Source: a virus
Lineage: Duplodnaviria; Heunggongvirae; Uroviricota; Caudoviricetes
Virus record (IMG/VR): IMGVR_UViG_3300043395_001986
Span: 45,308-109,307 of that record
Length of the DNA stretch: 64,000 nucleotides
Strand: one strand, 5' to 3'
The position numbers and the translations under genes were made by a program. A model generated the notes under the pieces. It made no database searches. It worked only from the letters and a program-made list of their open reading frames with translations, and had not been told where the DNA came from. Below, piece after piece: positions 14,055 to 63,470 of the stretch; positions within the stretch are counted from its first letter, which is position 1, and the number at the start of each line of letters is the position of its first letter.

Positions 14055-15068
14055 ATGCTAGATGTTTTAGTTACAACAGGTGCCGGAAATGTACCAATCG
14101 GTGGAAGTGATATATGGGTTAATATGTTCTTAAACGAAGTGTTACCATATTTACAAAGTAATGTTGTATTGTATATAGATAACAAACTACCAGTAGGATT
14201 TGATATTAAAAGTTTACCTGTACGCTATGTTGTAACAAATGAAGATGAAAGAATAGTTGATTTAGTTTTAAACAAAGCAGATAGAATACATTTTCTTCAT
14301 AACAATTATTTTGAAAGACCTAAATTGTGGAAATATAAACAAAAATTTCACACATATTTTTGTCACGCATATATTCAAGAAATTATAAACACAAATATAG
14401 AATTAGGGCTTGATAAAATTTATTTACCAACAAAAATGGATTTAAATTGGGAACAAAATGTAATTAAAGAATGTAAGAAAGTTGTATGGATTGGGTGTAA
14501 TGATGGATTGGTTGAAAAACAACACAAAGATAAATGTATTAGAATACCAAACTACTACCAATTCACAGAAAATAAACCATTTGAATATAAGAACGATAAA
14601 ATAGGATATGCAGCAAGAATTGAAACAAGAAAAGCACCACATTATTTAAGTGGCAAACAGGCTTTAATTTGTTCAAATGCAATGGATTGGGAAAATTACA
14701 AAGAGTATTTTAAAATAAATGATAGGAAAATAAAATTTTACCATTATAATTTGGAAAATCACAAAAATTTCTTTAATTTAGACTTCTCTGTATTCCACGC
14801 TTGCTACTTAAATGAGCCGTTTGGATATTCTATATTTAACGCAGTAGATTATGGAAAATTACCAATATTACATTCCGATTGGTGTCCAGAATTAGAGTAC
14901 AAATATAGAGCAAGTACGAAAGAAGAATTTGATAATGTTTATGAAATTATTAAATTAGATTCGTTTGAAGAAAAAGAAAAAGAGTTTTATAATTTAAAAT
15001 TCTTTTTACAAAGATTCACCAGCAGAGAAAAATGGATTGGAAAAATAGTAAGTGTTTTAAATAAATGA
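14055..15068 (+). CDS. Glycosyltransferase, GT-B (GT4-like)
   Basis: IGGSDIW N-terminal motif, ARIETRKAP, EPFGYSIFNAVDYGKLPI. Confidence 0.75.
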   Translation: MLDVLVTTGAGNVPIGGSDIWVNMFLNEVLPYLQSNVVLYIDNKLPVGFDIKSLPVRYVVTNEDERIVDLVLNKADRIHFLHNNYFERPKLWKYKQKFHTYFCHAYIQEIINTNIELGLDKIYLPTKMDLNWEQNVIKECKKVVWIGCNDGLVEKQHKDKCIRIPNYYQFTENKPFEYKNDKIGYAARIETRKAPHYLSGKQALICSNAMDWENYKEYFKINDRKIKFYHYNLENHKNFFNLDFSVFHACYLNEPFGYSIFNAVDYGKLPILHSDWCPELEYKYRASTKEEFDNVYEIIKLDSFEEKEKEFYNLKFFLQRFTSREKWIGKIVSVLNK

Positions 15069-15820
15069 TAACAAATAAAGATTACATTAAAAATTATATC
15101 ACCAATAATTTAGAATTTAATGAGGTTGGTGAAGAAGTGTTAAAAGATGTCCCATATCGTTGGTCACATGGTGCAACAGATGAACATTTAGGCGATGGAC
15201 TAATTATATACTCTATTATTCAGTATATGAGAGCAAAAGTATGTGTATGTTTAGGCAGTGGTGGCGGATTTATACCTAGAATTATGACACAGGCTAGAAT
15301 TGATTTACATTCTCAAAATATATTAGAAGGTAATAGAGATTATAATTGGGGTGATATTGGAACAACATATGTAGTAGATGCAATGAATGGAATTGGTGGT
15401 AATGTAAATTGGTTTAAAGAAGAATCTTTCTTTAGAAGAACATTTTATCCAAGAATTATTAATGATACAACTGCAAATGCATTTCATAATTTTTTTGTAT
15501 TAAATGATATTAAGATTGATTATTTGCATATTGATGCAGGTCATTCATACGAAAACGTAAAAGAAGATTTTGAATTATATTCTCAATTAATGAGTGAGAA
15601 TGGTATTATATCAATTCACGATACAGACCCGAATTACGCGGATAAATACATAGTTACAAATGAAGTAAAAGATAGAGGAGACCACGATGATTGGAGTGGA
15701 CCAATTAAATTAGCAAAAGAAATAGATACTGAAAAATGGCAAGTTTTTGACCTATTTAATTTTGGCATTATAAAAAACAAACCAGCTTCAACCGGATTAA
15801 CTTTAGTAAGAAAAAAATAA
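15065..15820 (+). CDS. Class I SAM-dependent methyltransferase (Methyltransf_24-like)
   Basis: VCLGSGGG, IDYLHIDAGHSYENVKEDF, GIISIHD. Confidence 0.8.
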   Translation: MITNKDYIKNYITNNLEFNEVGEEVLKDVPYRWSHGATDEHLGDGLIIYSIIQYMRAKVCVCLGSGGGFIPRIMTQARIDLHSQNILEGNRDYNWGDIGTTYVVDAMNGIGGNVNWFKEESFFRRTFYPRIINDTTANAFHNFFVLNDIKIDYLHIDAGHSYENVKEDFELYSQLMSENGIISIHDTDPNYADKYIVTNEVKDRGDHDDWSGPIKLAKEIDTEKWQVFDLFNFGIIKNKPASTGLTLVRKK

Positions 15821-16674
15821 TGAAACCAAAATTAGTTACTGTCACAGGGCATAGAACAAATACATTATGGCATCAACTAAACCATTATAAAGATATGGTT
15901 AGTGATATTTTTGTTATTACATATGAAAACGAAGATTCTCCAAAAAATATAAAAGGAGAAGTTGAATATATTTGCAAACAATTTGGAATTACACCACATA
16001 CTGTCAGAACACATAGACCTTTTGATTGGGAATATGTAACACAATTATATAATGAAACAAAAATGTTACACCCAAATGATTGGTGGATTGTATCAGATGA
16101 TGACGAGTTTCAAATATATAATGATTTAGTTGAAAACATAATTGATGAGTGTGAAGAATTTGGATATAAATTTGTAACGGGTGGATTTATAGATAGAATT
16201 GGGTTTAATGGTGATTTTCCAAAAATAAAAGAGAAAGAAGACATTTGGAAGCAATTTCCAATGGCTGGATTTTTTCGATATCCAATGAGTGGAGCGTGTC
16301 CAAATAAAGTTACCTTAATGAAAGGATGGATAGAACTTACACCTGGACAGCATTATGCAAAAATAGATGGTCAAACAACTTGGAGATGGCAAGGTTGGAA
16401 CCACCCACTTCGATATCCAGTAGATAGAAACTTTACGCAAGTGCATCATTTTAAATGGGATTCAACCGTCGTAGATAGATTGCAAGATGTTGCAAATATT
16501 GGTAAAGTTTATGCATTTTCAAAAGAATATAAAGAAATGTATGAAGCATTAAAAGAAAATAATTTTATGCTTGATATTTATGATAAGAAATATATGTTTG
16601 AAGAAGTAAATAAAATTGGATATCACTACTATAAAAGTTGGGGTAAACTTTCTAAAATAATTCAATCAATATAA
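15820..16674 (+). CDS. GT-A (GT2-like) glycosyltransferase
   Basis: WWIVSDDDEF DxD motif, GQH and VHHFKW. Confidence 0.7.
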   Translation: MKPKLVTVTGHRTNTLWHQLNHYKDMVSDIFVITYENEDSPKNIKGEVEYICKQFGITPHTVRTHRPFDWEYVTQLYNETKMLHPNDWWIVSDDDEFQIYNDLVENIIDECEEFGYKFVTGGFIDRIGFNGDFPKIKEKEDIWKQFPMAGFFRYPMSGACPNKVTLMKGWIELTPGQHYAKIDGQTTWRWQGWNHPLRYPVDRNFTQVHHFKWDSTVVDRLQDVANIGKVYAFSKEYKEMYEALKENNFMLDIYDKKYMFEEVNKIGYHYYKSWGKLSKIIQSI

Positions 16675-16706
16675 TTTGTTTATTTGAAATAAATTCGTTA
16701 CATTTG
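16675..16706 (+). promoter_or_regulatory. Bacteroidota sigma70-type promoter
   Basis: TTTG 16675-16678, 20-nt spacer, TACATTTG 16699-16706; ATG at 16711. Confidence 0.75.
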
Positions 16707-16710
16707 TAAA

Positions 16711-18201
16711 ATGGAAAATAAAAGATTAGGTCTAATAGTTCCGTGGAGAGGAGATTACCAAGACCTTCATAAGTTTTTAGGTCATATAGAATATTTCTTA
16801 AATAATAAAGAGATAAATTATAAATTCTATATAATTGAACAGGTTGATAAAAAACCTTTCAATTATGGTGCGTTGTGCAATACTGGCTATGAATTGGCAA
16901 AAGATGAATGTGATTATTTTATTTTCCACAGCCCTTATTTTATTCCAGTTGATGATACATGTGATTATTCTTATTCCACAAAAGTTCAACATCTATCATC
17001 GGTAGTAGATGCATTTGGATATAAAAAACCATATGCAGAATGGATAGGTGGTGCAATAAAATTTACACACGAAACATTTGAAGAAGTAAACGGATATTCT
17101 GATGAATATTGGGGAATAGGTATGGAAGATGTTGATATGTTGTATAGATTAAATCGTAAAAAATTAGTAAGAAATAAAAAATATTTTAATATTGATATGC
17201 TTAAAGAGCATGATTTATTTGATATAAATGAAATTTCAAATCTAAAAAAAGTAAGTTTAACATATTTTGATTTTGATAAAAAATATAAATCATGTATGAT
17301 TAAATCAACAAAAAATACAAAATATGTTTTTCAAGATAGTTTTACTATTGATATGTTTTTGTATGTAGATAGAAATAAAAACTACGATAGTTTTATTTTT
17401 GGAAAACAAGGTTATAACGCCGGCATCTTTTTTAAAGATAACAAAGCATTGAATTTACAATTATGGAATAGTGATGGTAAGGTATGTGAAGTTTGGTATG
17501 AGAATTTTAATTTATTAGAAAGGTGGATGAAAATAACTATGAAATTTGATTTTGATGCACAACATCTTTGGTTATATGTCGATGGTCTACCAGTAGCAAG
17601 TAATTCATTTAATGGTGAAGTATTTGATTATACAGATAAAGATATTTGGATTGGTAGTTTAGCATTCAATCATCAATTTTCTGGTAAAGTTTCAAACATA
17701 TTGGTATTTGACTACGCATTATCGGATTCGGAAATATTAAACTTATATAAACAAAATTATATAAACGAAACCGGTAATATTGTAACGAGAGAAAAGGCAA
17801 TTATTGATATTCCATTTTCTAAAAAATATAAAGATTTTTATATTGATATGGGATTATATGAATCGCATGTAAGAGATTTATCCGCAACAAAAGAAGATAA
17901 TACAAAAACAGAATTAATATCATTAAATTATGATTATAATTTTCCAGAAGAAACACCTGGAAAATACAAATGTTTAGATGTAGATAGAATGAATGACTTC
18001 AAAAATATTTGGAGATGGTCTGGTAATGTGGATTTAGAAGAAAACAAACATATATTTTTTAATGATGTACTACCATCAAAAACTTATTTTAAAAAAGTTG
18101 GATTATCATCATTGGAATTTAAAAAAGAAAACGAATTTTATCCAAAAGGAGAAGATGGGATGGATAGAAAAAATGTAGAAATATATCAAATTAAACTATA
18201 A
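16711..18201 (+). CDS. GT7 (beta-1,4-galactosyltransferase-like) protein with inserted LamG domain; degenerate active site
   Basis: IVPWR, EQVDKKPFNYGAL, NGYSDEYWGIGMEDVD; DxD replaced by FHSPYF; LamG motifs (LYVDG, IWIG, FSGKVSN..VFDYALS). Confidence 0.75.
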   Translation: MENKRLGLIVPWRGDYQDLHKFLGHIEYFLNNKEINYKFYIIEQVDKKPFNYGALCNTGYELAKDECDYFIFHSPYFIPVDDTCDYSYSTKVQHLSSVVDAFGYKKPYAEWIGGAIKFTHETFEEVNGYSDEYWGIGMEDVDMLYRLNRKKLVRNKKYFNIDMLKEHDLFDINEISNLKKVSLTYFDFDKKYKSCMIKSTKNTKYVFQDSFTIDMFLYVDRNKNYDSFIFGKQGYNAGIFFKDNKALNLQLWNSDGKVCEVWYENFNLLERWMKITMKFDFDAQHLWLYVDGLPVASNSFNGEVFDYTDKDIWIGSLAFNHQFSGKVSNILVFDYALSDSEILNLYKQNYINETGNIVTREKAIIDIPFSKKYKDFYIDMGLYESHVRDLSATKEDNTKTELISLNYDYNFPEETPGKYKCLDVDRMNDFKNIWRWSGNVDLEENKHIFFNDVLPSKTYFKKVGLSSLEFKKENEFYPKGEDGMDRKNVEIYQIKL

Positions 18202-18205
18202 AATT

Positions 18206-18499
18206 ATGGCAACATCAAAAAAAGAAACTGAAAAAAATGTAGAATCTACATCAGTAGCATTATTAGAAGAAAGAAAAGTTAAAGCATTGGAAAAAATAGC
18301 CAAATCACTGGATGCATTAACATCTTGGGTTGAAGATATAGATAAGGCAGAATGGAGCGAAAGAATCCAGTATTATTTATATGAGTTCTTAAATAAAGAC
18401 CAATCCAAATCGTATAGACAAGATAAGAATACTAAAACACAAGAAGAAGATACAGAAGAAGCAGAATTTGTAAGACCAACTCGTAGAATAGTTGAATAA
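18206..18499 (+). CDS. Hypothetical small helical protein
   Basis: 97-aa ORF packed tightly between GT7 genes. Confidence 0.65.
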   Translation: MATSKKETEKNVESTSVALLEERKVKALEKIAKSLDALTSWVEDIDKAEWSERIQYYLYEFLNKDQSKSYRQDKNTKTQEEDTEEAEFVRPTRRIVE

Positions 18500-19947
18500 T
18501 GAAATTAGGAGTAATCGTACCATATAGAGATAGAGAAGAACATCTTAATATTTTTAAGAAAGAGTTTTGTGCTTTTTTAGAGCAAAAATCTATTCCGTTT
18601 GAACTTATCATTGTAGAACAATATGATGATAAACCATTTAATAGAGGAAAGCTTTTAAATATAGGTGCTATGAAGGCATCTGAAATCGGATGTACTTATT
18701 TAGCATTTCATGATGTTGATATGATACCATTGGAGGCAGATTATTCATTTGAGTTTAAACCAATACATTTGGCAACATCATTTGTTAAAGATGAAACAAA
18801 TGAGATAGAAACATTGCATTTTGATGAATATTTTGGAGGAGTAACATTATTTCCAGTAGACCAATTTGAACAAATCAATGGGTATTCAAATGAATATTGG
18901 GGATGGGGATTTGAAGATGATGATTTACTTTTTAGATGTAAAAAATTTAATTTACCATTAGATAAAAAAACATATGGTAAATCTACATTAAAAGTAATGA
19001 ATAGTTTTTCATTTACAGGAGATGCATACATATCAATACCAATTCAACCATTAGCAAATGATACTTTATTTGATTGGAGAAAATCACAGACAGTTTTAAT
19101 AACATTCCAGCCAAGTAACATATATTGTGATACATCAAAGAAAAAAGATGATTTTACAGTCTTTTCTATACCAGGATATGATACCTGTATTTCGTATACT
19201 TCCGATAGAAGATACAAAGTAGAAACATGGACAGATAGTAATGAGTGTGTATCTATAAATTCTGAACAAATGGATGAACAATGGGTACAGATTGCATTTG
19301 TTATGGATGTAAAAAGAAAAGAAATTAAATTTTACTTAAATAGTAAATTAATTGGAATTGAAAAAATGCCATCATTCTTTAAAGAGTATGTAACAGAAGA
19401 ACCACATTTTTATTTAGGAGTGGGAGACCCATATAGAGAGAAAGACAAAAACTTTTTTACAGGATTAGTATCAGGATTTTCTGTATTTGATACTATTTTA
19501 GATGATAAAGAAATTGAGTTTTTATATGAAAACATAAATTCTTTTTCTTTATTAAGTAATTTTAAAAAATATAAAAGTTCTGAACATCTTGCTGTATATT
19601 ATGATTTTCAACATTATAAAAATGGAAAAATATTAGATATAAGTGGTAAGGGAAGACATGGTGAAATTACAAATGCTTATTTTAAGCAAACAAAAGAAGT
19701 ATTTGGTAAAACAATACCTCTTCCATATAGAAGGATATCTAAATTTAAAAAATTAAATCATTATAATAATGGATGGGAAAGAGGAGGATGGATACAAGAA
19801 GAAACCCGTTTAAATCAAATTCGTTTTATGAATGATGTTTCAAACAATATGATAGATATAAGAAAGGATGGATTAAATAGTTGCTTATATAACATAGTAA
19901 AACAAGAATCAGTAAATAATATTCATCACATATATACAAGAATATGA
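18499..19947 (+). CDS. GT7 glycosyltransferase with inserted LamG domain
   Basis: IVPYRDREEHL, FNRGKLLNIG, FHDVDM, YFGGV, NGYSNEYWGWGFEDDDL; LamG; C-terminal H...DGLN. Confidence 0.85.
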   Translation: MKLGVIVPYRDREEHLNIFKKEFCAFLEQKSIPFELIIVEQYDDKPFNRGKLLNIGAMKASEIGCTYLAFHDVDMIPLEADYSFEFKPIHLATSFVKDETNEIETLHFDEYFGGVTLFPVDQFEQINGYSNEYWGWGFEDDDLLFRCKKFNLPLDKKTYGKSTLKVMNSFSFTGDAYISIPIQPLANDTLFDWRKSQTVLITFQPSNIYCDTSKKKDDFTVFSIPGYDTCISYTSDRRYKVETWTDSNECVSINSEQMDEQWVQIAFVMDVKRKEIKFYLNSKLIGIEKMPSFFKEYVTEEPHFYLGVGDPYREKDKNFFTGLVSGFSVFDTILDDKEIEFLYENINSFSLLSNFKKYKSSEHLAVYYDFQHYKNGKILDISGKGRHGEITNAYFKQTKEVFGKTIPLPYRRISKFKKLNHYNNGWERGGWIQEETRLNQIRFMNDVSNNMIDIRKDGLNSCLYNIVKQESVNNIHHIYTRI

Positions 19948-21401
19948 AATTAGGCGTATGTGTACCATATAGAAACAGAGAAGAACATTTAGCAAAATTT
20001 TCACCTCATGTTCATGAATTTCTTAAAAAAAGAGGAATAGACCATAAGATTTATTTTGCACACCAATGCGACGATAAATTGTTCAACAGAGGTAAAATGA
20101 AAAATATTGCAGCGGATATTGCATTTAAAGATGGGTGTGATTATATCGTATGGCATGATATTGATATGTTACCAGAAGATGATTCCTGTGATTATAGTTA
20201 CAATCCTGATACTCCAAAACATTTGGCAGTAAGAATATCACAATCAGATTATAACCTCAAATATGAGGAGTATTTTGGTGGCGCCGTATTGTTTACAAAG
20301 GAGCAGGTTATGAAAACCAATGGTTACTCAAATGATTATTGGGATTGGGGTATGGAAGATGATGATTTGTTTTGGAGATGCGTTGTGAACGGATACGCTG
20401 ACCAAAAGTATTTACACGACAAATATGTTCAAAAAGTTTTACATTTTAATGGAAAAAATTCATCAGTAGAAATACCTGTAAGTAGGAATATTAGGGGATT
20501 ATGTTCACGTTCTCATACTGTCTCAATTTTAGTAAAAGCAGAACAGCAATTAGATAAGGCTCCATTGTATTTAATTGGTGATGATGAAAGAAGATTTGTG
20601 GAATATCCTATAATAAGAAGACCTGGATATGATTGGGGATTGAGTTATAATAATAGTAGAGCATATACAACTATGTTATGGAATTATGAAAAGGAATTTT
20701 TATATATGTGGATGAAAAGATACGAAGAACAATGGACATGGGTAACATTGACAGTTGATGATGAAACAAAAGAAATTCGTTTGTATTTAAATGGAAAGGA
20801 AAGTGATAGTAGATTTGGAACAGGTGTGCCATCACCATTAAAATATAATGGATTATTGAAACGATATGCAAGTGAACCATATATATTAGGAACAACAAAT
20901 TCATTAGCAGATTCACATCCTGCAAAATGGTTTAAAGGTTCAATTGCAAAAGTTGCAATGTGGGACAGATGTTTATCAGAAGAAGAAATTCAACAAAGTA
21001 TTTTAGGTGAACCTATTAAAGAAGATTTGCAATTATATTATGATTTTGCAAAATCTAGATTTGGATTAATAAATGATTTAAGTGGAAATGACAACTATGG
21101 AAATATATTTAATATAACTGAAATAGAAGATGAAATTGCAATTCCATATACAATATTACCACATCGGAGAGATGGTAAATTCTTTTGTTTACCACACCAA
21201 ACAGAAGGATTAATCCAAATAGATGGTGTAGATAAATGGGCTAAAGGAGAAACAACTGCAAGAAATGAAAGAAGATATGTTCTTCAAATGCAACAAGGTG
21301 AATGGGATTGGAAAAATGATGGGATGAATAACTTAACCTATGAGTTATTATCAATAGAAGATATAGGTAACAATTCAGTAATAATAAATTGTAAATGCTA
21401 A
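19944..21401 (+). CDS. GT7 glycosyltransferase with inserted LamG domain
   Basis: VPYRNREEHL, FNRGKMKN, WHDIDM, YFGGA, NGYSNDYWDWGMEDDDL; LamG; C-terminal H...DGMN. Confidence 0.85.
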   Translation: MKLGVCVPYRNREEHLAKFSPHVHEFLKKRGIDHKIYFAHQCDDKLFNRGKMKNIAADIAFKDGCDYIVWHDIDMLPEDDSCDYSYNPDTPKHLAVRISQSDYNLKYEEYFGGAVLFTKEQVMKTNGYSNDYWDWGMEDDDLFWRCVVNGYADQKYLHDKYVQKVLHFNGKNSSVEIPVSRNIRGLCSRSHTVSILVKAEQQLDKAPLYLIGDDERRFVEYPIIRRPGYDWGLSYNNSRAYTTMLWNYEKEFLYMWMKRYEEQWTWVTLTVDDETKEIRLYLNGKESDSRFGTGVPSPLKYNGLLKRYASEPYILGTTNSLADSHPAKWFKGSIAKVAMWDRCLSEEEIQQSILGEPIKEDLQLYYDFAKSRFGLINDLSGNDNYGNIFNITEIEDEIAIPYTILPHRRDGKFFCLPHQTEGLIQIDGVDKWAKGETTARNERRYVLQMQQGEWDWKNDGMNNLTYELLSIEDIGNNSVIINCKC

Positions 21402-21404
21402 TAA

Positions 21405-22799
21405 ATGATAAGTAATAATTTTTTTGATGATGTAAGATATAAACTCAATTCAGTAGGACCTGGATTTTGTTTGGCTAAATGGAAACAGGTTACATTACAT
21501 CTACACATTGGTCACAATCATAGTTGTCACCACCCGGGTACACATAAAATTTCTGAAAGAGAAATAGCAGAAGACCCATCGCATCTTCACAATACTCGAT
21601 TTAAAAAAGAGAGAAGAAAGGAAATGTTAGAAGGTAAAAGACCTAAAGAGTGCGATTATTGTTGGAGAGTAGAAGATAGTTCCGATGCGTTTTCCGATAG
21701 AACATTTAAATCAGCAGAACCATGGGCGTTACCATATTATAATCAAATAAAAAACCTACCAGCAGATGCGAATGTATTACCATCATATGTAGAAGTATCA
21801 TTTAGTAATGCATGTAACTTTAAATGTTCATATTGTGCACCACCATTTTCAACACAATGGATGGAAGAAATTGAACAATTTGGTGCATATCCAACTGCGG
21901 GTAAATTTAATGGATTAGAACATTTCCAATTAAGTGATAGAATGCCAATACCACAAAATCAGCACAATCCTTATGTAGAAGCGTTTTGGAAATGGTGGCC
22001 TGAATTATATAAAGGATTACATACATTTCGTATAACTGGTGGTGAACCATTTATGCATAAAGATACATTTAAGGTATTGGATTATATTTTGGAAACACCA
22101 AATCCAAATAAAAACTTAGCATTAAGTATGAATAGTAATTTGGGAGTTCCTGATAAGTTATTCAATAAAGCAAAGGAAAAATTAAAAGAGATAAGTGATA
22201 GAGGATTGGTTAGAGAATTGATTTTATTTACATCAGTAGATACACATGGTGCACAGGCCGAATATATTAGAAATGGATTAGTATATAATCAATTGATGGA
22301 TAGAATGGATATTTTGTTAAAAGAAATACCAAGATTAACAATTATCATTATGAGTACATATAACGCATTATCTGTTCCAAAATATAAAAAATTAATTCAC
22401 GAAGTATATGATTTAAAAGCATTATATGCAGATGAAAATCGTTATTATCAACAATCGGTTTTATTGGATAGTTCATATCTTCGTTGGCCATCACATCAAC
22501 ATATTAAATTATTAGATAATCATTGGTCAAAAGAAATAATGGAGCAGGCACAACTTATGGATTTTTATGAGTTTAGTAGAGTTGGAGCAGGCTGTTGGGG
22601 ATATAGTGATGTTGAAATTGTTAAAATGAAAAGAATAGCTGATTATATGAAATCAGTAGAAAATGAAGAAGCTATAAAATACGATAGACAAGATTTCTAT
22701 CGCTTTTTTAGCGAACATGATAGACGAAGAGGAACTGATTTTTGTAAAACATTCCCCGAATTAGAAGAATTTTATAATAAATGTAAAGAGTTATGTTAA
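21405..22799 (+). CDS. Radical SAM protein with N-terminal Twitch/SPASM-like Cys cluster
   Basis: CNFKCSYC and ITGGEP; N-terminal CLAKW..HSCHH..ECDYCW. Confidence 0.88.
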   Translation: MISNNFFDDVRYKLNSVGPGFCLAKWKQVTLHLHIGHNHSCHHPGTHKISEREIAEDPSHLHNTRFKKERRKEMLEGKRPKECDYCWRVEDSSDAFSDRTFKSAEPWALPYYNQIKNLPADANVLPSYVEVSFSNACNFKCSYCAPPFSTQWMEEIEQFGAYPTAGKFNGLEHFQLSDRMPIPQNQHNPYVEAFWKWWPELYKGLHTFRITGGEPFMHKDTFKVLDYILETPNPNKNLALSMNSNLGVPDKLFNKAKEKLKEISDRGLVRELILFTSVDTHGAQAEYIRNGLVYNQLMDRMDILLKEIPRLTIIIMSTYNALSVPKYKKLIHEVYDLKALYADENRYYQQSVLLDSSYLRWPSHQHIKLLDNHWSKEIMEQAQLMDFYEFSRVGAGCWGYSDVEIVKMKRIADYMKSVENEEAIKYDRQDFYRFFSEHDRRRGTDFCKTFPELEEFYNKCKELC

Positions 22800-24601: not shown

Positions 24602-25138
24602 ATGAGTAGCAAATGGGACGAGTTCAAAATAACTCCATCAAAAAAATTTGGTATAGAAGTTCCACAATTTCAACCATCGGTATTTAGAGAATACAGAGGC
24701 GAGATATTTACAACCTTTCATTCAAAAGAACACCCTGTAATGAATTATGTGAGTGATGGATGTGAAATACATGGTAGGTTTTCTCGTTCATACAAAGGTG
24801 TATTGAGAGGATTGCACTGGGATAATAAGACTTGGAAATTAGTTCAAGCAGCAGTTGGTGATATCTATTTAGTTGTATTAGATATGAGAAAAAATAGTCC
24901 TACATTTGGTGAATGGGAAAATTATATTATAAGTGAGAGATTAAGAAATCAAGTATTAGTTCCACCAGGATTTGCAAACGGACACTATGCATTAACCGAT
25001 TGTATGTTTCATTATAATTTATTTTATAAAGATGGTTATGTAGATGCGGATGAGCAAGGCGTAGTGAAGTGGAATGACCCGGAATATCAAATTGAATGGC
25101 CAACAAATAATCCAATATTACAAAAAAGAGACAGATGA
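24602..25138 (+). CDS. rmlC: dTDP-4-dehydrorhamnose 3,5-epimerase family protein
   Basis: RGE.F, SYKGVLRGLH, DMRKNSPTFGEW, VPPGFANG, WNDP..IEWP. Confidence 0.85.
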   Translation: MSSKWDEFKITPSKKFGIEVPQFQPSVFREYRGEIFTTFHSKEHPVMNYVSDGCEIHGRFSRSYKGVLRGLHWDNKTWKLVQAAVGDIYLVVLDMRKNSPTFGEWENYIISERLRNQVLVPPGFANGHYALTDCMFHYNLFYKDGYVDADEQGVVKWNDPEYQIEWPTNNPILQKRDR

Positions 25139-51944: not shown

Positions 51945-51979
51945 AAAAGGGGGTGAGAAATCACTCCCTTTTTTTATTT
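51945..51979 (+). terminator. Rho-independent terminator after the capsid gene
   Basis: AAAAGGGGGTGA-GAAA-TCACTCCCTTTT followed by a T tract. Confidence 0.9.
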
Positions 51980-52023
51980 AACAATATTTAGATATTTATA
52001 TAAAATCAAATTAAATATATTAA

Positions 52024-55552: not shown

Positions 55553-57643
55553 ATGGGAAAAGTTAGAATTTCAGAATTACCTTATTTAGTAAGTGCATCT
55601 GCAGATGTAATACTACCTGTTGTTGATAATGGTGTAACATATAAAACAGATTTAAATGTTTTAGAAACCGCAATGGTACATGTTTTATCATCATCAATTG
55701 ATAATAGATTGGATTTTTTAGAAACTTTTAGCGCATCGTTTCCTCAATTTAGCTCATCTATTGATATTAAAATAGAAGCCGCAACAAATGAACAAAGTTT
55801 AGCACATTTAATAACTACATCTTCATTTAATTCATTTACACAATCATATTATAATGTAAGTGCTTCATTTGATAGTAGAATACAAAATCATATATCGTCA
55901 ACTGCATATATAAGTGAATCATATACAGAATTTGTTTATAGTTATCATTCCGAAAGTTCTAGTTTTAGTAGCAGAATAGATGCGGCAACAAATGAGCAAT
56001 ATATAGCAGGATTATTACTAACAGCATCGTACAATACCGATAGTACTTCATTTGACAGTAGATTAGATGGATTAGAAAGTTTTAGTAGTTCAGCAGATAA
56101 TAGATATGTTTTGAGTGGGAGCATTACTCAAACAACTTGGGATAATATTGCAAATAAACCAAATGATATTATAAGTTCATCAACACAAATTTCTGATTTG
56201 GGATTTGTAACAGGTTCATATACTACTATAACTTCATTCAATAATTTAACACAATCATTTAATCAAATATCACAATCATTTACGACAGTTAGTGGTAGTT
56301 TTGGCGAAATAGATTTTAGTGGAATTAACTCAATTACAGCTTCATATTTAGAATTTACTCAATCATATTATAGTGAAAGTGCTTCATTTGATAGTAGAAT
56401 TATTAGTGGTAGTGCAGTAGCAGGAACAATAAGTGGTAGTTCTCAAATAGCAGCATTGGGATATGCAACTACATCATCCGTAACTACAATAAGTGCATCA
56501 GCATGGGGAGCATTCCAAAGTGCAAGTTCTTATAGTAGTTCTTTACAAACTTCAATTACAACATTAAGTAGTAGTGTAAACACATTAAGTTCTTCAGTAG
56601 ATAGTAGATTTGATACATTAGAAGCAACTATCATAAGTGGAAGTCCAAATTATATACAAGTATTAGGTAATCAAAGAAGTGGTATATCAGTTGATGGAAC
56701 ATCAATTATTAGTGGTAGTATTACTACGACCGGTAATCCCGTTCAAATTATGGTGACCGGTGATGCAAACCCAACATCAACAACAGGTCAATGGTGTAGA
56801 CTTCAATTATATAGAAATAGTAGTGCAATTGGTAATATTATTCAAGTAGAATCTTCTGCACAAAATGAAAATGTTCCGTATTGTTTAAATGTAATAGATA
56901 CACCATCAGCAGGAACATATGAATATTCTCTTAAAATAGCATCACCACAAGGAACTTGGGCATTTGGTGAAGCAACGGGTCCTCTTTTAACCGCAGTAGA
57001 ATTAAAAACAAATACAAACTTACCATCTACAAATAATACATTTACTGAAACAAACACATTTACTGGTGCAACCAATTTAAGTGGTTCGGTAAGAATTGGA
57101 GCCGGTGCAGGATTTGAAGGTGGTGAACTACAATTAGCATACGCACCATCGGGTTCTACTTTAACAGGTAGTGCAGTTAGTGTGGATATTTATCAAAATA
57201 GATTAAGAATATTTGAAGGTGGTGGTAATGCTAGAGGTGCACATTTGGATTTAAGTAAATTACCGGAAGGTGTTGCAGGTGAATTGATATGGAAAACAAG
57301 TGGGTTTGTAAACGCAGGAACATTCTTAACATTAGATAATTTAAAAGTATCAGTAACAACAGGTGGTAGTAGAGGATTGAGTGTGGGAGCAGTATCAACA
57401 AATTTTACCGCTAACATATCGGGTTGGTTTGGATATACCGGTGGTGGGGGTGGTGCATCCGCATATAACGTATCATACACAACAACCGGGTCAAATTCGG
57501 CATTTGGGTGGTCGTTTGGAACAGAAGGTGATGGTTCGAATTATATTATAAACGATAAAACCAATAATAGAGTTTATCGTGTAAGTTTAATGATTGGTGC
57601 GGGATACAATAATAATTTCATTTCAATAGAAAGATTATATTAA
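55553..57643 (+). CDS. Ser-rich fibre/decoration protein
   Basis: VRISELP N-terminus, SFDSRI repeats, globular beta C-terminal domains. Confidence 0.65.
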   Translation: MGKVRISELPYLVSASADVILPVVDNGVTYKTDLNVLETAMVHVLSSSIDNRLDFLETFSASFPQFSSSIDIKIEAATNEQSLAHLITTSSFNSFTQSYYNVSASFDSRIQNHISSTAYISESYTEFVYSYHSESSSFSSRIDAATNEQYIAGLLLTASYNTDSTSFDSRLDGLESFSSSADNRYVLSGSITQTTWDNIANKPNDIISSSTQISDLGFVTGSYTTITSFNNLTQSFNQISQSFTTVSGSFGEIDFSGINSITASYLEFTQSYYSESASFDSRIISGSAVAGTISGSSQIAALGYATTSSVTTISASAWGAFQSASSYSSSLQTSITTLSSSVNTLSSSVDSRFDTLEATIISGSPNYIQVLGNQRSGISVDGTSIISGSITTTGNPVQIMVTGDANPTSTTGQWCRLQLYRNSSAIGNIIQVESSAQNENVPYCLNVIDTPSAGTYEYSLKIASPQGTWAFGEATGPLLTAVELKTNTNLPSTNNTFTETNTFTGATNLSGSVRIGAGAGFEGGELQLAYAPSGSTLTGSAVSVDIYQNRLRIFEGGGNARGAHLDLSKLPEGVAGELIWKTSGFVNAGTFLTLDNLKVSVTTGGSRGLSVGAVSTNFTANISGWFGYTGGGGGASAYNVSYTTTGSNSAFGWSFGTEGDGSNYIINDKTNNRVYRVSLMIGAGYNNNFISIERLY

Positions 57644-57658
57644 CGATATTTATACCTA

Positions 57659-57934
57659 ATGGCAACTTTAATAAGATTAAAACAAATAGAAAGTGGTTCT
57701 GCATTACAAACATCTGCAGATTTGGGAAATAATGTTTCACAATCAATAATAAACATTGTTAGTAGTTCTATTGCAGGTGTATTACCAGATGGTATAGTAT
57801 CTTCATCTGCACAAATAGAATTATTATCAGCAAGTGGATATAATGCATTTACTGAATCATTGAATATTACATTTGCAACAGATTACGAAGTATTTGTTAC
57901 TTCATCATTAATTTTAGACCAGGGAGAATTTTAA
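57659..57934 (+). CDS. Small Ser-rich structural protein
   Basis: IRLKQI N-terminus; FATDYEV...LDQGEF C-terminus shared with the next gene. Confidence 0.6.
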   Translation: MATLIRLKQIESGSALQTSADLGNNVSQSIINIVSSSIAGVLPDGIVSSSAQIELLSASGYNAFTESLNITFATDYEVFVTSSLILDQGEF

Positions 57935-57948
57935 TATTTATATAACAA

Positions 57949-58605
57949 ATGAGTCAAATTTTAAAACTAAAACGCGGTAATTTAGAAAGAATATCCATTG
58001 TAACGGGTTCGTTAACAAAGGGTGAAATGATTATTGCTTCTTCTTCCGCAAATATAAATTCTATAAATGGAAGTTCAATTGTATTTTCAACAACAGAAAA
58101 TGGACGTATTGAAGCCGTAAATAGAATAATCAAAAGTAATACCGCTCCAAACATATTTAGTTCATCGGTATACGGCAATACAATAGATGGTGTTCCTTAT
58201 TTTGATAGTGGAAGTGGTACTCTTTATTTATTAGGTGCAGATGGAAATGAAGCAATTTCTTTAATTGGTAACATTCAACCATTGAGTTCATCGGTTAACA
58301 CTAGAATTTCTCAATTAGAAAGTTTTAGTTCTTCATTAACTACAACATTTGCAACAGATATAGAATTAGCAGCAGTTTCTCAATCGGTATCAGCATCGGA
58401 AGCGGCAGTAAGTGCTTCAATTGCAAATTCTTTATCTAATATTTACACTTTCTTTCCAGCAGGTGTTATAAGTAGTTCACAACAAGTTATAGATATTTTC
58501 AACGCTAACTTCAGTAGTTCAATGGCAACGACGGTTGATAATGTATTTGCAACGGATTATGAAGTTGAGGTCACATCTTCATTGATGGATGGCGGTGAAT
58601 GGTAA
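57949..58605 (+). CDS. Ser-rich structural protein, short paralog of the 58692 N-terminus
   Basis: LKRG..KGE..DGVP..TLYLLGADGN.AI.L.GNI shared with 58692; ends MDGGEW. Confidence 0.65.
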   Translation: MSQILKLKRGNLERISIVTGSLTKGEMIIASSSANINSINGSSIVFSTTENGRIEAVNRIIKSNTAPNIFSSSVYGNTIDGVPYFDSGSGTLYLLGADGNEAISLIGNIQPLSSSVNTRISQLESFSSSLTTTFATDIELAAVSQSVSASEAAVSASIANSLSNIYTFFPAGVISSSQQVIDIFNANFSSSMATTVDNVFATDYEVEVTSSLMDGGEW

Positions 58606-58691
58606 AAAAAAATAATTAAAATTTATTAATATTAAACAAATTTAAAAATCATTTCTCATATTTATATGGGTAAAGGAGTAACTGAACTAAT

Positions 58692-61600
58692 ATGGCACAA
58701 CAAATATTGAATAAACGTGGTAGTTTAGACAGACTATCAGCAAACACCGGCTCAGCACAAAAAGGAGAAATCTTAATTGCAACCGGCTCTAGTAAATTAA
58801 ATAATGTAACAAACGGACAAGGTCTTGTTTTTGCAGCAGTAGAAAGTGGTTCGATTGTAGCCGCTAACAGAATATTGACAGGAAATACACCTCAAATATT
58901 CTCTGCATCTCAATACGGGCATTTAATGGACGGAGTTCCTTTTTATGCTAGTAGTAGCAAAACATTGTACTTATTGGGAGCAGATGGTAACACTGCAATA
59001 GATTTAAGTGGTAACATCTCTGATTTCAGTTCTTCGGTAAGTTCTTCATTTGCAAGTTTAAGTGCATCCGTAGCTTCCGTTACGGGAGATTTCAGTTCAT
59101 CAGTAGCAACTTCATTTAGTGCTAGTGCAGCAAGTGTAGCAGCATTAAGTGCATCAATCCATACAACTATTTTTGATTTTGGTGGATTGAGTTCATCAAT
59201 TGAACAATCTATTTCAGCAAGTTCTGCAAAAGCAGCTTCTGATTTACATTCATATAGTGCATCAGCAGCAACAACTGATAGTGCAAGTGCAGCATCAATT
59301 GCAGCATTAAGTGCAAGTGTGGCAAGTGTTACAGGTGACTTCAGTAGTTCAGTAGCAACTTCATTTTCTGCAAGTGCAGCTTCTCAAAATAATTTAAGTG
59401 CTTCGGTAGCAACTTCATTTAGTGCAAGTGCCGCTTCTCAAAATGATTTAAGTAGTTCGGTAGCAACAACAATTAGTAATTTAAGTTCTTCAATTGCAAC
59501 AACAGATTCAGCGAGTGCAGCTTACGCAGCATCTCAATTGAATTCAGTAAGTGGTGCGGTAGCAACAACTATTAATAATGTAAGTGGTGCGTTTGCAACA
59601 TCAACTTCTGCAAGTAATGCAGCAATTGCTTCATTGAGTGCAAGTGTAGCAAGTGTAACAGGAGATTTCAGTTCATCAGTAGCAACTTCATTTTCTGCAA
59701 GTACAGCTTCTCAAAATAATTTAAGTGCTTCATTAGCAACTACAATTAGTGCAAGTTCGGCAACGGCAGCATCTGATAATTTTAATTTAAGTAGTTCGGT
59801 AGCAACAACAATTAGTAATTTAAGTTCTTCTATTGCAACAACTGATAGTGCAAGTGCAGCTTCTCAAAATGATTTAAGTAGTTCGGTAGCAACAACAATT
59901 AGTAATTTAAGTTCTTCAATAGCAACAACTGATTCTGCATCTAAAGCCGAATATACATCATTTAGTGCAAGTGCAGCATCTCAATTTAATACATTTAGTT
60001 CTTCGCAAGCATCAGTAAATGCAACTTACGCAACAACTGGTTCAAATACATTCGTTGGAACCGAAGTAATTAGTGGTTCATTATATATTACAAATAATTT
60101 AGTAGTATATGGTTCTTCTTCGGTTCAAAATGTAACAGCAAGTGCAGTATCAATTGGTACTAACACTGTCGTTTTAAATACAGCAAATCCTGCAATTAGA
60201 TTTGGTGGTATACAAGTAATTGATTCTGGTTCTTCTCAAGCAACCGGTTCATTACTTTGGGATTCTGAAAATAATGTTTGGTTATATGCTAATCCAGTTG
60301 GAGCAGGATATGGTTCAGCTCGTTTAATTGCAGGACCTCAAAACACTGGTTCATTAGGTGAAGAGATTGGTTTATCAACAACATATGTTCCAGTAGCATT
60401 AGGTGATGACCATATTGGTGATTCAAACATTAAAGTTGTTGGTAACGAAGTAACAATCGAAGCTGGTAATTTATATGTAGAAGGTGCTTTAAGTGCTTCA
60501 ACTATAACTGGTATAGGAAATGTAGCAGACTTTAGTAGTTCAATTAGTGCATCAATTGCATCAATTAATACAAATTTAGGTAGTGGTGGTTCATTAGGAA
60601 CGAGAGTAGCAAATTTAGAAACTATCTCATCTTCTTATTTAGCATTTACACAATCATATTATAGTGATAGTTCATCATTTGATACAAGAATTAGTGCAAG
60701 TAAAGCAGAATACACATCATTCTCTGCAAGTGCAGCAAGTGATTTAAATAATGTAAGTTCTAGTGTAGCAACTTCATTCTCTGCAAGTGTAGCATCTCAA
60801 TTGGAGTTATCCGCGAGTATTGCAACGACCGATTCCGCAAGTGCAGCATATGCAGCATCACAATTATTAAATGTAAGTGGAGCATTTGCAACTTCTACTT
60901 CTGCAAGTAACGCAAGTATAGCAAGTTTAAGTGCATCCGTAGCTTCTGTTACGGGAGATTTCAGTAGTAGTGTAGCAACTTCATTTAGTTCGAGCAATGC
61001 AAATGTAACTTCAATTAGTGGAGCATTTGCAACTTCATTATCTGCAAGTAATGCAAATGTAACTTCAATTAGTGGAGCATTTGCAACTTCTACTTCTGCA
61101 AGTAATGCAGCTATTGAAGCGTTAAGTGCAAGTGTAGCAAGTACAACTGGTAACTTTAGTTCTTCAGTTGCAGGTAGATTAAATGTAATAGAAACAACAT
61201 ATGCAACAACTGGTTCAAATGTATTTCATGGTGACCAAACATTAACCGGTTCATTCTCAATGACGGGTACTGCAAACTTCAATAATGCAGTAGCAGTTAA
61301 TGATTCAAATATGAACTTGGGTAATAGTTCTTCATTGAATTTAACCGGTGGTTCTTCAATTTATGTAGCGGGTGTAGGTGTAATTAGTGGTAGTATCGTA
61401 GGTATAGGTAATGTAAGTGCGTATTCTGCATCAGTAGATAGTAGATTTAGTGCAAGTGCATTTGAATTATCAATATTATCAGCAAGTGTAGCATCAGTAG
61501 GTGGTACATTCAGTTCATCTGTTGCAACTACAATTTCTAATTTAAGTTCATCAATAGCAACAGACTTTAGTGCAAGTGCGGCTTATGCAGCATCTCAATT

Positions 61601-63470
61601 AAGTTCTGTAAGTGGTGCGGTAGCAACTTCATTAAGTGCAAGTAAAGCAGAATACACAGCATTCTCTGCAAGTTCAGCAACAGCATTAAATAATTTAAGT
61701 TCTTCAGTAGCATCTGATTTAAACACTTTAAGTTCATCTATATATCAAACAGATGCAACTCAAAGTAATAATATTTCAATTGTAAGTGCAAGTGCATGGG
61801 GAGCATTTCAAAGTGCAAGTTCATATAGTGGAAGTGCAGCAACCACCTTAAATAACTTCAGTTCATCGGTAGCAACAGACTTTAGTGCGAGCCAAGCGGC
61901 ACAAAATCAAATAATATCAGCTTCTCAATATGATGTGACAGTATTAAGTTCATCTGTTGCAACTTCTTTAAGTGCAAGTGCAGCAAACGTAACTAATATA
62001 AGTTCATCATTTGCAAGTAATATAAACACTTTAAGTGCATCAATATATCAAACAGATGCAACTCAAAGTAACGCAATAAATGCAAATTCTCAAAGTTTTG
62101 CAACTTCTTTAAGTGCAAGTGCAGCAAGTGTAACTGCATTAAGTTCTTCGGTAGCATCTGATTTAAATTCAGTAAGTGGTGCAGTAGCAACTTCTTTAAG
62201 TGCAAGTAAAGCAGAATACACATCATTTAGTGCAAGTGCAGCAAGCAATTTAAATAGTGTAAGTGGAGCATTTGCAACTTCTACATCAGCAAGTAATGCA
62301 GCTATTGCAGCGTTAAGTGCAAGTGTAGCAAGTACAACTGGTGATTTCAGTAGTTCAGTAGCAACTCAATTTAGTGCAAGTGCAGCAAGTGTAACTTCAT
62401 TAAGTTCTTCAGTAGCATCTGATTTAAATAATTTAAGTTCTTCATTAGTAACTTCAATTTCTGCAAGTAATGCAAATGAAGCAGTATGGAGTGCATCAAT
62501 AGCAGGTAGAGCAACTAAATTAGAAGCATCTCAATCGGCATTTGATACGGCATTCACTTTAAGTGGTTCAAGTGTAACTGTCAAAGGAAATTTAGTAGTT
62601 AATGGTACAACTACGACCGTTAATTCTACAACTATTGAATTGGGCGACAACATCATCAGTTTAAATGGTACAACTGCAGCATTCGGTGGTATTCAAATAA
62701 ATGACCAATTAGATGGTTCGAAAGTAAGTGGTTCATTATTATGGAACGCACAAGATGATTATTGGATAGCGGGTAAGAGTGGTAGTGAAGCAAAAATATT
62801 AGTGGCAGTAGGTGATAATGTAGTAAGTTCATCAGCACAAATAACATTAAGTTCTACAACAGGATTTAGTTCATTTGATACCGCAATTTCAACTTCATTC
62901 TCTGCAAGTAATGCAAGTATATCATCTTTATCTGCAAGTGTAGCAAGTGTAACTGGCGACTTTAGTTCATCTGTTGCAACTTCATTTAGTGCTAGTAATG
63001 CAAGTATTGCAGCATTAAGTGCGAGTGTAGCAAGTGTAACCGGAGATTTCAGTAGTAGTGTAGCAACTTCGTTTAGTGCAAGTGCAGCATCACAAACAGC
63101 ATTAAGTTCTTCAGTAGCAACCACTATTAGTAATTTAAGTTCTTCAGTAGCGACTTCATTCTCTGCTAGTTACTTTGAAATTGCAAATAATAGTTCATCA
63201 TTTGCAACTTCAGTATCAGCATCAAATGCAAGTATAGCAAGTTTAAGTGCAAGTGTAGCAAGTGTAACGGGAGATTTCAGTTCATCAGTAGCAACTTCGT
63301 TTAGTGCAAGTGCATTTAATTTAGAAGCATTAAGTGCATCAATATACTTAACTGACGCTACTCAAAGTACCGATATAACAAATAATAGTGCATCTTTTGC
63401 AACCGCAATAAGTTCAAGTAATTACAGAATTACAAACTTGGAGTTAGTAATTGATGGAGGTTCTTTCTAA
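58692..63470 (+). CDS. Giant Ser/Ala/Thr-repeat fibre protein (1592 aa)
   Basis: Long SAS/SSS repeats interrupted by beta-rich modules; ends IDGGSF. Confidence 0.8.
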   Translation: MAQQILNKRGSLDRLSANTGSAQKGEILIATGSSKLNNVTNGQGLVFAAVESGSIVAANRILTGNTPQIFSASQYGHLMDGVPFYASSSKTLYLLGADGNTAIDLSGNISDFSSSVSSSFASLSASVASVTGDFSSSVATSFSASAASVAALSASIHTTIFDFGGLSSSIEQSISASSAKAASDLHSYSASAATTDSASAASIAALSASVASVTGDFSSSVATSFSASAASQNNLSASVATSFSASAASQNDLSSSVATTISNLSSSIATTDSASAAYAASQLNSVSGAVATTINNVSGAFATSTSASNAAIASLSASVASVTGDFSSSVATSFSASTASQNNLSASLATTISASSATAASDNFNLSSSVATTISNLSSSIATTDSASAASQNDLSSSVATTISNLSSSIATTDSASKAEYTSFSASAASQFNTFSSSQASVNATYATTGSNTFVGTEVISGSLYITNNLVVYGSSSVQNVTASAVSIGTNTVVLNTANPAIRFGGIQVIDSGSSQATGSLLWDSENNVWLYANPVGAGYGSARLIAGPQNTGSLGEEIGLSTTYVPVALGDDHIGDSNIKVVGNEVTIEAGNLYVEGALSASTITGIGNVADFSSSISASIASINTNLGSGGSLGTRVANLETISSSYLAFTQSYYSDSSSFDTRISASKAEYTSFSASAASDLNNVSSSVATSFSASVASQLELSASIATTDSASAAYAASQLLNVSGAFATSTSASNASIASLSASVASVTGDFSSSVATSFSSSNANVTSISGAFATSLSASNANVTSISGAFATSTSASNAAIEALSASVASTTGNFSSSVAGRLNVIETTYATTGSNVFHGDQTLTGSFSMTGTANFNNAVAVNDSNMNLGNSSSLNLTGGSSIYVAGVGVISGSIVGIGNVSAYSASVDSRFSASAFELSILSASVASVGGTFSSSVATTISNLSSSIATDFSASAAYAASQLSSVSGAVATSLSASKAEYTAFSASSATALNNLSSSVASDLNTLSSSIYQTDATQSNNISIVSASAWGAFQSASSYSGSAATTLNNFSSSVATDFSASQAAQNQIISASQYDVTVLSSSVATSLSASAANVTNISSSFASNINTLSASIYQTDATQSNAINANSQSFATSLSASAASVTALSSSVASDLNSVSGAVATSLSASKAEYTSFSASAASNLNSVSGAFATSTSASNAAIAALSASVASTTGDFSSSVATQFSASAASVTSLSSSVASDLNNLSSSLVTSISASNANEAVWSASIAGRATKLEASQSAFDTAFTLSGSSVTVKGNLVVNGTTTTVNSTTIELGDNIISLNGTTAAFGGIQINDQLDGSKVSGSLLWNAQDDYWIAGKSGSEAKILVAVGDNVVSSSAQITLSSTTGFSSFDTAISTSFSASNASISSLSASVASVTGDFSSSVATSFSASNASIAALSASVASVTGDFSSSVATSFSASAASQTALSSSVATTISNLSSSVATSFSASYFEIANNSSSFATSVSASNASIASLSASVASVTGDFSSSVATSFSASAFNLEALSASIYLTDATQSTDITNNSASFATAISSSNYRITNLELVIDGGSF
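59020..63420 (+). repeat. Intragenic repeats (SASVASVTGDFSSSVATSFSAS; NLSSS[IV]ATT)
   Basis: About ten SASVAS[VT]TG[DN]FSSSVA copies and many 11- and 18-residue units, also visible in DNA (gcaagtgtagcaagtgtaac). Confidence 0.9.

Follow-up and report, generated by a model that had tools for sequence, protein, structure and literature searches.

The window analyzed here is a 64,000-nucleotide stretch (bases 45308–109307) of IMG/VR record IMGVR_UViG_3300043395_001986, the 237,307-bp genome, rated complete, of an uncultured aquatic phage. It contains an island of 21 open reading frames (ORFs) on the plus strand (14055–34688), tiled with gaps of 0–96 nt, and on balance we favor the view that this island glycosylates the phage's own tail fibers. 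Eight of its genes are glycosyltransferase-like. One is GT4-like and another weakly GT2-like, three are beta4GalT-like and contain a LamG insertion, and the other three encode GT-B proteins termed "TEK" here. A gene for a 1438-residue tail fiber flanks the island upstream, and the terminase, portal, protease, and major capsid protein genes lie downstream. A first-pass annotation had described a contiguous block of about 20 kb of glycosyltransferase, nucleotide-sugar, and tailoring genes between a tail fiber and the head genes; the tiled ORFs and their Pfam and NCBIfam families confirm this description, and the arrangement is far beyond chance.

In the proposed mechanism, the phage would encode a self-contained, cytoplasmic glycan factory. 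Tailoring enzymes would turn host nucleotide-sugars into modified, probably 6-deoxy or fucose-like, methylated sugars, and the eight soluble glycosyltransferase-like proteins would put these sugars directly onto tail-fiber proteins prior to assembly. The GT4-like enzymes would take the protein-directed step, after which the beta4GalT-like enzymes, with LamG next to the acceptor loop, and the three TEK enzymes would extend the glycan. What the phage gains may be a shield, stability, or an effect on receptor interaction. The genes present, their folds, synteny, and conservation, and the coupling between them are observed, and it is the acceptor, the sugars, the order of the steps, and the benefit that we infer. 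The phage's own fibers are favored as the target because the pathway is wholly soluble and lacks all membrane steps of the surface-polysaccharide route, because the complete genome contains no thymidylate-synthase-family hydroxymethylase, because GT4-like genes are directly coupled to fiber genes at two loci, and because a complete relative, G001, holds a TibC protein-serine cassette at the syntenic locus.

The coupling is closest at the front of the island, where the GT4-like gene (14055–15068, plus strand) starts 6 nt past the end of the tail-fiber gene (9732–14048, plus strand). The encoded fiber, which contains 13% serine, matches PHROG tail fiber families, carries a C-terminal Peptidase_S74 chaperone domain (PF13884), and is a candidate acceptor. 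A full-length paralog of the GT4-like protein (35% identity) is encoded just outside the window, at window-equivalent positions 71521–72531, and its gene starts 2 nt after that of a 1183-residue tail fiber in the fiber module. The same fiber–GT4 coupling is seen in eight island-bearing records besides this one. Nine island-bearing genomes together yield 17 GT4-like hits, of which 10 lie no more than 60 nt after an ORF of at least 600 residues with 11–16% serine (gaps of −4 to +33 nt) and a further three come after ORFs of 513–564 residues. Since they are encoded directly after fiber genes, the GT4-like enzymes are the best, and reasonable, candidates for the protein-directed step.

The fold predicted for 14055 is GT-B (AlphaFold2, 20-sequence alignment, pLDDT 92.5). 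Its best Foldseek matches are the GT4 enzymes tll1591, BshA, PimA, and WaaG (E 1.7e-10 to 1e-6, TM 0.55–0.68), and WbnH is a further GT4 structural neighbor. The protein matches no Pfam family even at E ≤10, and hence not the Glycos_transf_1 model, and sequence and profile searches of the PDB returned nothing meaningful. The earlier designation as GT4-like is thus right at the level of the predicted fold.

A hydropathy scan detected no convincing transmembrane segment in the 21 island proteins; the threshold was passed only by single internal stretches in a soluble short-chain dehydrogenase/reductase (SDR; 23631) and a thiamine pyrophosphate (TPP) enzyme (25135). Pfam and NCBIfam searches of the island likewise identified no flippase, transporter, polymerase, ligase, or initiating phosphoglycosyl transferase family. 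These results bear on a different target, which we regard as unlikely, in which the island remodels the host envelope. Unusual sugars would be transferred from their nucleotide forms onto lipid-linked lipopolysaccharide (LPS), capsule, or S-layer intermediates of the host on the inner side of the membrane, host flippases and ligases would finish the product, and the changed surface might, for example, exclude other phages or stop progeny from sticking to debris. LPS-type genes are known from aquatic phages, among them cyanophages, the SDR, RmlC-like, and Fcl-like set of the island is like that of O-antigen and capsule loci, and WaaG, PimA, and WbnH are among the structural neighbors of 14055. 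However, an envelope target does not sit well with the missing membrane components, with the tight coupling of GT4-like and fiber genes at two loci, with the near absence from bacterial genomes of the GT7–LamG protein described below, or with the protein-specific TibC cassette that sister phages carry at the same locus.

That cassette is best seen in G001, whose portal is 54% identical to that of the present phage and which lacks the whole island. Its syntenic locus reads, in order, fiber, a different cassette, a homolog of a 1360-residue protein, and terminase. The cassette (226357–230812; positions 6357–10812 of locus L173) encodes a GT4–methyltransferase fusion, a split HldE-like kinase and nucleotidyltransferase, and a TibC homolog (E 2.3e-51 against PDB 4RAP) in which the CxxC, WCP, and ECT cysteine motifs align. 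TibC homologs occur in 10 of 35 related records, mostly 6–9 kb upstream of the portal and thus at the same locus, and none was found in the present genome. In one further genome, G014, the island is present and a TibC homolog is encoded beside a collagen-like Gly-Ser/Thr fiber gene. To our knowledge, TibC-family enzymes act only as cytoplasmic protein-serine heptosyltransferases. In the TibC/TibA and Aah/AIDA-I systems (PDB 4RAP, 4RB4), a repetitive surface fiber is glycosylated on serine in the cytoplasm, and the sister phages (G001 and nine other records) possess a true homolog of these enzymes, whereas the present window has no TibC and instead encodes GT4-like, beta4GalT-like, and TEK enzymes with another set of sugar genes.

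Several features of this comparison stand apart from the question of the target. In the present window, the 1360-residue multidomain protein is encoded at 34706–38788, after the island and ahead of the terminase gene. It combines a cytidylyltransferase-like domain at its N-terminus with a DUF5661 domain, and homologs are present in all relatives examined, the island-free G001 included. The Ser-rich fibers of G001 are proline-free and collagen-like (Gly-Ser/Thr-Ser). A split HldE-like pair (PfkB kinase and cytidylyltransferase-like protein), 40–46% identical to the pair in the G001 cassette, is also encoded in the present genome, far from the island (genome positions 211839–212989), although no TibC is encoded here that would take up an activated heptose. 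A search for genes that island-bearing genomes have and G001 lacks was set aside, since such genes are inseparable from plain lineage divergence.

The GT7–LamG protein matches at least 260 IMG/VR loci, and per-gene conservation was counted in 80 loci with 10-kb flanks. Genes 14055 to 21405 (the first nine) are present in 70–80 of the 80 loci and the later sugar genes in 40–64, a drop partly due to the flank limit, while two oxygenase genes near the rear are present in four. The island is therefore a stable trait of the clade with a variable rear part.

The most distinctive enzymes of the island are three beta4GalT-like (GT7) proteins encoded on the plus strand at 16711–18201 (copy 1), 18499–19947 (copy 2), and 19944–21401 (copy 3), each matching Glyco_transf_7N, Glyco_transf_7C, and Laminin_G_3. 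The two GT7 models score 55–70 bits against cut-offs of 23–27, and over their first 150 residues the proteins resemble animal B4GALT1 and B4GALT7, with E 2e-32 in phmmer and 1e-42 as a family profile. The family profile also pairs positions 433–472 with B4GALT1's C-terminal segment DGLNSLxY; this second match is weak, yet collinear with the first. A search with just the last 95 residues of copy 2 gave no match, and only the profile recovered the segment. Since the N- and C-terminal beta4GalT segments are collinear, LamG is an insertion of about 250 residues inside the catalytic domain and not an appended domain, and by this alignment the insertion site is the position of the mobile acceptor loop. 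Copies 2 and 3 retain the DxD motif (D-V-D or D-I-D) and WG/DWGxEDDD. In copy 1 the DxD motif is replaced by S-P-Y (FHSPYF), and this loss suggests that the copy may be inactive, altered, or a non-catalytic partner. The phage enzymes thus have the catalytic core, DxD, WGWGxEDDD, and C-terminal segment in common with animal beta-1,4-galactosyltransferases (B4GALT1, B4GALT7), and differ in the LamG domain at the acceptor loop, the absence of a membrane stem, and the one copy of three without DxD. A stand-alone LamG or sialidase-lectin-like protein (22793–23629, plus strand; weak Pfam match) is a paralog of the insert, aligning by BLASTP with residues 236–386 of copy 3.

The GT7–LamG family comprises 1845 metagenomic homologs. 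A scan of 185,579 species genomes of bacteria and archaea, one that detects close relatives only, placed it on just two contigs of metagenome-assembled genomes (MAGs), and the protein therefore appears close to phage-restricted. One contig was assigned to a Pelagibacterales MAG and the other to an Anaeromicropila MAG, and both are most likely mis-binned phage contigs.

The three TEK proteins (25728–27242, 27229–28527, and 32454–33797, all plus strand) are paralogs that share, by alignment, an invariant E-K pair in the context T-E-T...S/T-E-K; such a pair presumably has a GDP-fucose-binding role in GT10. They belong to no Pfam family, and neither single-sequence nor profile searches gave a meaningful PDB match. 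The predicted fold of 32454 is GT-B (AlphaFold2, pLDDT 83.8), and its structural matches are near-tied GT-B enzymes, with T4 DNA beta-glucosyltransferase (BGT) at the top (Z 12.9), followed by FUT9 (Z 11.2) and Helicobacter pylori FucT (Z 10.4). FUT13, FUT11, T4 alpha-glucosyltransferase, and a chlorovirus transferase are also among the matches, and GT10 (alpha-1,3-fucosyltransferase-like) folds do not stand above the other GT-B families. With these GT-B matches and the B4GALT matches described above, the first-pass view of the GT7 and TEK proteins as real glycosyltransferase folds is borne out.

The resemblance to T4 enzymes raises the question of DNA as the acceptor. In that scheme, the transferases would glycosylate modified bases as protection against restriction, as the T4 alpha- and beta-glucosyltransferases do, and the methyltransferase and the two 2-oxoglutarate (2OG)–Fe(II) oxygenases of the island could be counted in its favor together with the T4 fold matches. 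T4-type glycosylated DNA requires a thymidylate-synthase-family hydroxymethylase. A search for this family (PF00303) found none in the complete 237-kb record, while the control search was positive in 10 of 14 genomes. The oxygenases are prolyl-hydroxylase-like and not of the TET/JBP type, and with four of 80 loci they are rarely present; the methyltransferase belongs to a TylF-like small-molecule class; and lectin inserts, deoxy-sugar tailoring, and a position at the fiber module are unfitting for DNA modification. We therefore consider a DNA target highly improbable. DNA glycans of greater complexity than those of T4 have been described in other phages (Pyle et al. 2024, as cited in PMC12619734).

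Which fibers would be modified is a separate question, because the fiber module of the window is rich in serine. Three ORFs of 696, 91, and 218 residues with 17–19% serine (55553, 57659, and 57949; together 55553–58605, plus strand) precede an Ala/Ser-rich fiber of 1592 residues (58692–63470, plus strand) with a late-type promoter at about 58658. Its serine content of 25.9% is the highest of 262 ORFs (genome mean 7.3%), and it contains SAS 63 times and SSS 42 times, in agreement with the earlier description of fibers dominated by these tripeptides. From this composition the first-pass annotation had drawn a likeness to streptococcal serine-rich repeat proteins (SRRPs), which are primed by GtfA/GtfB. 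As a special case of fiber glycosylation, the fibers at 55553–63470 would be serine-primed by 14055 and the glycan extended by the other transferases. The streptococcal and staphylococcal systems (GtfA/GtfB, SdgA/SdgB) do combine, as here, a Ser-rich surface fiber with a GT-B enzyme and extending transferases, and the top Foldseek hits of TEK protein 32454 are the serine O-GlcNAc transferases SdgB and GtfA, but these are weak (TM 0.39, Z 7.8–8.2).

The details of the fiber and its surroundings argue against this likeness. The repeats of 58692 show an identity autocorrelation peak at a lag of 29 residues and a hydrophobic spacing of 3.63 residues, which equals 29/8; Pfam gives nothing beyond a match below threshold to SF-assemblin, a coiled-coil family of 29-residue repeats. 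Together these features point to an Ala/Ser-rich helical rod, in contrast to the disordered SxSx dipeptide repeats of SRRPs. A three-copy complex prediction of fiber residues 105–330 scored 0.02, too low to weigh either way, and ESM Atlas look-alikes of the repeats score at most 0.84 and are leads only. The translation of 58692 contains neither a signal peptide nor an LPXTG wall anchor, and no accessory Sec genes are found among the window ORFs. Nor is a GtfA/GtfB pair, or a GtfB-like partner, clearly recognizable in the window: the best matches of 14055 are generic GT4 enzymes and not GtfA in particular, and GtfA and SdgB appear only as weak TEK matches. No transferase gene adjoins 58692, and by gene order the fibers encoded directly before GT4-like genes are pointed to first, ahead of the SAS fiber, which may nevertheless be an acceptor. 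The likeness to SRRPs thus does not hold, and priming of these fibers in the streptococcal manner is improbable. What stands of the earlier proposal that the phage builds a glycan coat on its particle is the particle itself as a target: virion fibers are the best-supported acceptors, given the GT4–fiber coupling at two loci and the TibC cassette at the syntenic locus of sister phages, while the analogy to SRRPs falls away and the SAS fiber is no more than a possible acceptor.

A different Ser-rich protein is encoded outside the window (genome positions 196163–197662). Its roughly 500 residues comprise a signal-peptide-like N-terminus, a Ser/Ala-rich low-complexity stretch of 250 residues (up to 33% serine), and a possible C-terminal beta-barrel. 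The protein is not a fiber, and its homologs (G004, G006, G007, G008, and G012) occur in island-bearing and in TibC-only phages.

A number of observations weigh against fibers as the target. One concerns the expectation that the island and SxS-rich structural proteins would co-occur across relatives. In the long ORFs of twelve genomes, SAS and SSS together number 30–218 in island-bearing genomes as against 4–8 in TibC-only genomes. This is the direction expected if fibers are the target, but the three TibC-only genomes form one subclade, and the contrast is close to a single independent comparison. Among island-bearing genomes, Ser-rich sequence also differs in length about seven-fold, and G002, a complete island-bearing genome, encodes no protein with more than 13% serine, which counts in particular against serine priming of the SAS fibers. 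The tripeptide counts thus agree with the expected co-occurrence, and G002 departs from it. Moreover, the sequences of transferases that use lipid-linked intermediates likewise look soluble, and missing membrane proteins are therefore not decisive. The GT-B fold is silent on the acceptor, and the TEK protein has its best structural match in T4 BGT, a DNA-modifying enzyme. Finally, the parallel between 14055 and the GT4–methyltransferase fusion of G001 is positional only, as BLASTP detects no similarity between the two.

Expression timing belongs among these points as well. The motif ATATTTATA occurs in 36 copies on the plus strand and none on the minus strand, 22 of them no more than 50 nt upstream of an ORF start, and is probably the late promoter of the lineage. 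Read as its reverse complement, it corresponds to the core of TATAAATA, the T4 late promoter, which was rejected as a promoter here, with only 15 copies and five upstream of genes. Copies of ATATTTATA at 1378, 4784, 38795, 44723, 47842, 51993, 57647, 57935, 58659, and 65236 (the last beyond the window) lie 12–35 nt upstream of the virion genes 1407, 4807, 38825, 44749, 47854, 52024, 57659, 57949, 58692, and 65264; two of the smaller Ser-rich ORFs, 57659 and 57949, thus have the motif just upstream, and 55553 does not. In this phage, no strong late motif was found within 4783–34693. A Bacteroidota sigma-A promoter-like site, TTTG-N19-TACATTTG, was located by motif scan before the first GT7 gene (16675–16705, plus strand), and sites of this type (TTTG-N19-TAnnTTTG, often cGTATATTTGTA) occur at 5480, 6458, and 16675 and at many positions beyond the window, clustering at small genes and replication genes. 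The sigma-A-type site at 16675, the two others in the same interval (5480 and 6458), and the lack of a strong late motif there make early expression of the island possible, which would fit remodeling of the host envelope.

The relatives tell against that inference. The site at 16675 is kept in only two of 76 relatives and was dropped as a clade-level argument for early expression, and the recognizable promoters inside the relatives' islands are mostly late-type (upstream of the 14055 homolog in 10 of 69 loci and of the 18206 homolog in 11 of 86 loci). Expression timing is thus ambiguous. A scan for Escherichia coli-type sigma-70 promoters gave fewer sites than shuffled sequence and is hence uninformative. 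There is no convincing terminator between the fiber gene and the island, nor in the intergenic gaps of the island. Strong GC-rich hairpins followed by T-runs (e.g., AACCCAACCCCGTAAGGTTGGGTTTTTT) are present at 3254–3325 and 51923–52024, just upstream of late-type motifs; transcription units probably end there, between blocks of virion genes.

The sugars that such a pathway would use can be approached through the remaining genes of the island, all on the plus strand. Behind the GT4-like gene lie a S-adenosylmethionine (SAM) methyltransferase of the Methyltransf_24 family (15065–15820, Pfam E 4.5e-11; TylF-like sugar O-methyltransferase class) and the weak GT2-like (GT-A) gene (15820–16674), whose PF13704 score of 22.6 bits is below the cut-off of 27.5 and which is kept in 76 of 80 loci. 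An acidic protein of 97 residues without family (18206–18499; 77 of 80 loci) separates the first two GT7 copies. The third copy is followed by a twitch-domain radical SAM protein (21405–22799; NF033640, 323 bits against a cut-off of 170), for which we infer a sugar-tailoring role. Pfam and NCBIfam further assign an SDR epimerase/dehydratase (23631–24599), an RmlC-like 3,5-epimerase (24602–25138), an SDR with GDP-L-fucose synthase as best match, below the cut-off (28524–29462), and a second Fcl-like SDR (30935–31912). A split E1/transketolase-like TPP enzyme is encoded in two places, with the TPP-binding, E1-alpha-like half at 25135–25767 (PF00676, TIGR03182) and its Transket_pyr partner at 31916–32461. 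The two oxygenases (29477 and 30184; 29477–30933) are accessory. At the rear end, a protein of 264 residues without family (33894–34688) has a late-type promoter motif at 33873; it was counted in three of 80 loci, which understates its conservation because it lies past the 10-kb flank of the island-selected loci. No nucleotidyltransferase is encoded in the island.

The two Fcl-like SDRs, the RmlC-like epimerase, the further SDR, the methyltransferase, the radical SAM protein, and the split TPP enzyme suggest, from family assignments, a route from host nucleotide-hexoses to 6-deoxy or fucose-like sugars that are further methylated and perhaps oxidized. These sugars may also carry a two-carbon branch, as TPP-dependent pathways make branched sugars.

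The genome itself has a GC content of 30% and nearly every gene on the plus strand. By PHROG assignment it is that of a T4-like myovirus, with endonuclease VII-like, primase, fused SbcCD-like, terminase, portal, prohead protease, major capsid, and tail fiber genes, and with a tail sheath gene just past the window edge. Because the genome is rich in the TTTG-N19-TAnnTTTG promoter-like sites, the host is probably a member of the Bacteroidota. The nearest portals in GenBank are those of Flavobacterium phage immuto (49%) and Microcystis phage Mel-JY01 (47%), and neither DNA nor protein searches matched the island, the GT7–LamG protein, or the fiber to any GenBank phage. Phage immuto was considered as a transferase-free control and rejected, as it has a glycan cluster of its own. 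This 11-kb cluster (NC_055915.1, 49172–59988) encodes five to six glycosyltransferases, WecE-type aminotransferases, a methyltransferase, and an epimerase, with no fiber genes adjoining. This cultured relative also carries a 7-deazaguanine DNA modification set, and such clusters could be modeled with it in the laboratory.

The record may belong to, or lie near, the moraphages, aquatic Bacteroidota phages of 200–307 kb with four core glycosyltransferase orthogroups whose target was left open between DNA, host, and virion (Perez-Hernandez et al. 2025, PMC12619734). Habitat, size range, T4-like structural genes, and predicted Bacteroidota hosts are shared, whereas the moraphage paper describes neither the island nor the fiber coupling nor the TibC alternative (PMC12619734).

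The island also invites comparison with established cases of virus-encoded glycosylation. We know of experimental proof of phage virion glycosylation only for mycobacteriophages, where it alters antibody recognition. Their soluble glycosyltransferases, encoded between structural genes of the phage, are reported to act in the cytoplasm and probably on proteins of its own virion, with one to a few transferases, the C-termini of capsid and tail-tube proteins as acceptors, and host sugars as donors (Freeman et al. 2023, Cell Host Microbe, PMC10527164, as cited in PMC12619734). The present system, known from genes alone, differs in its 21 genes, sugar-tailoring pathway, eight transferase-like proteins, fiber coupling, and occurrence in a T4-like jumbo phage of Bacteroidota. 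Among giant viruses, the chlorovirus capsid glycans and mimivirus fibril glycans are made by virus-encoded, cytoplasmic, membrane-independent pathways that combine tailoring, methylation, and multiple transferases. Their hosts are eukaryotic and their enzyme families are others, and the only link detected to the phage is a shared fold, with no sequence relationship.

More generally, we tentatively propose that T4-like jumbo phages of aquatic Bacteroidota maintain a "glyco-cassette" locus behind a tail-fiber gene, an idea that we find plausible but stop just short of calling probable. The locus would hold interchangeable protein-glycosylation modules, either TibC-type heptosylation or a 21-gene factory that places a methylated deoxy-sugar glycan on fibers by means of fiber-coupled GT4-like primers and lectin-inserted beta4GalT-like enzymes. 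The island is much larger than the mycobacteriophage systems, its enzymes are unlike those of the TibC cassettes, and the lectin-inserted beta4GalT-like enzymes are its mark. These enzymes may be of use as tools, as may the fiber-coupled GT4-like enzymes and the compact split TPP enzyme for branched sugars, and the four core glycosyltransferases of moraphages gain a concrete candidate target. If the proposal is true, elaborate virus-autonomous virion glycosylation, so far described in giant viruses and, in a simpler version, in mycobacteriophages, would be widespread in abundant environmental phages, and the sugar coats of lake and sea phages could influence host range, the stability and stickiness of particles, and grazing in nature.

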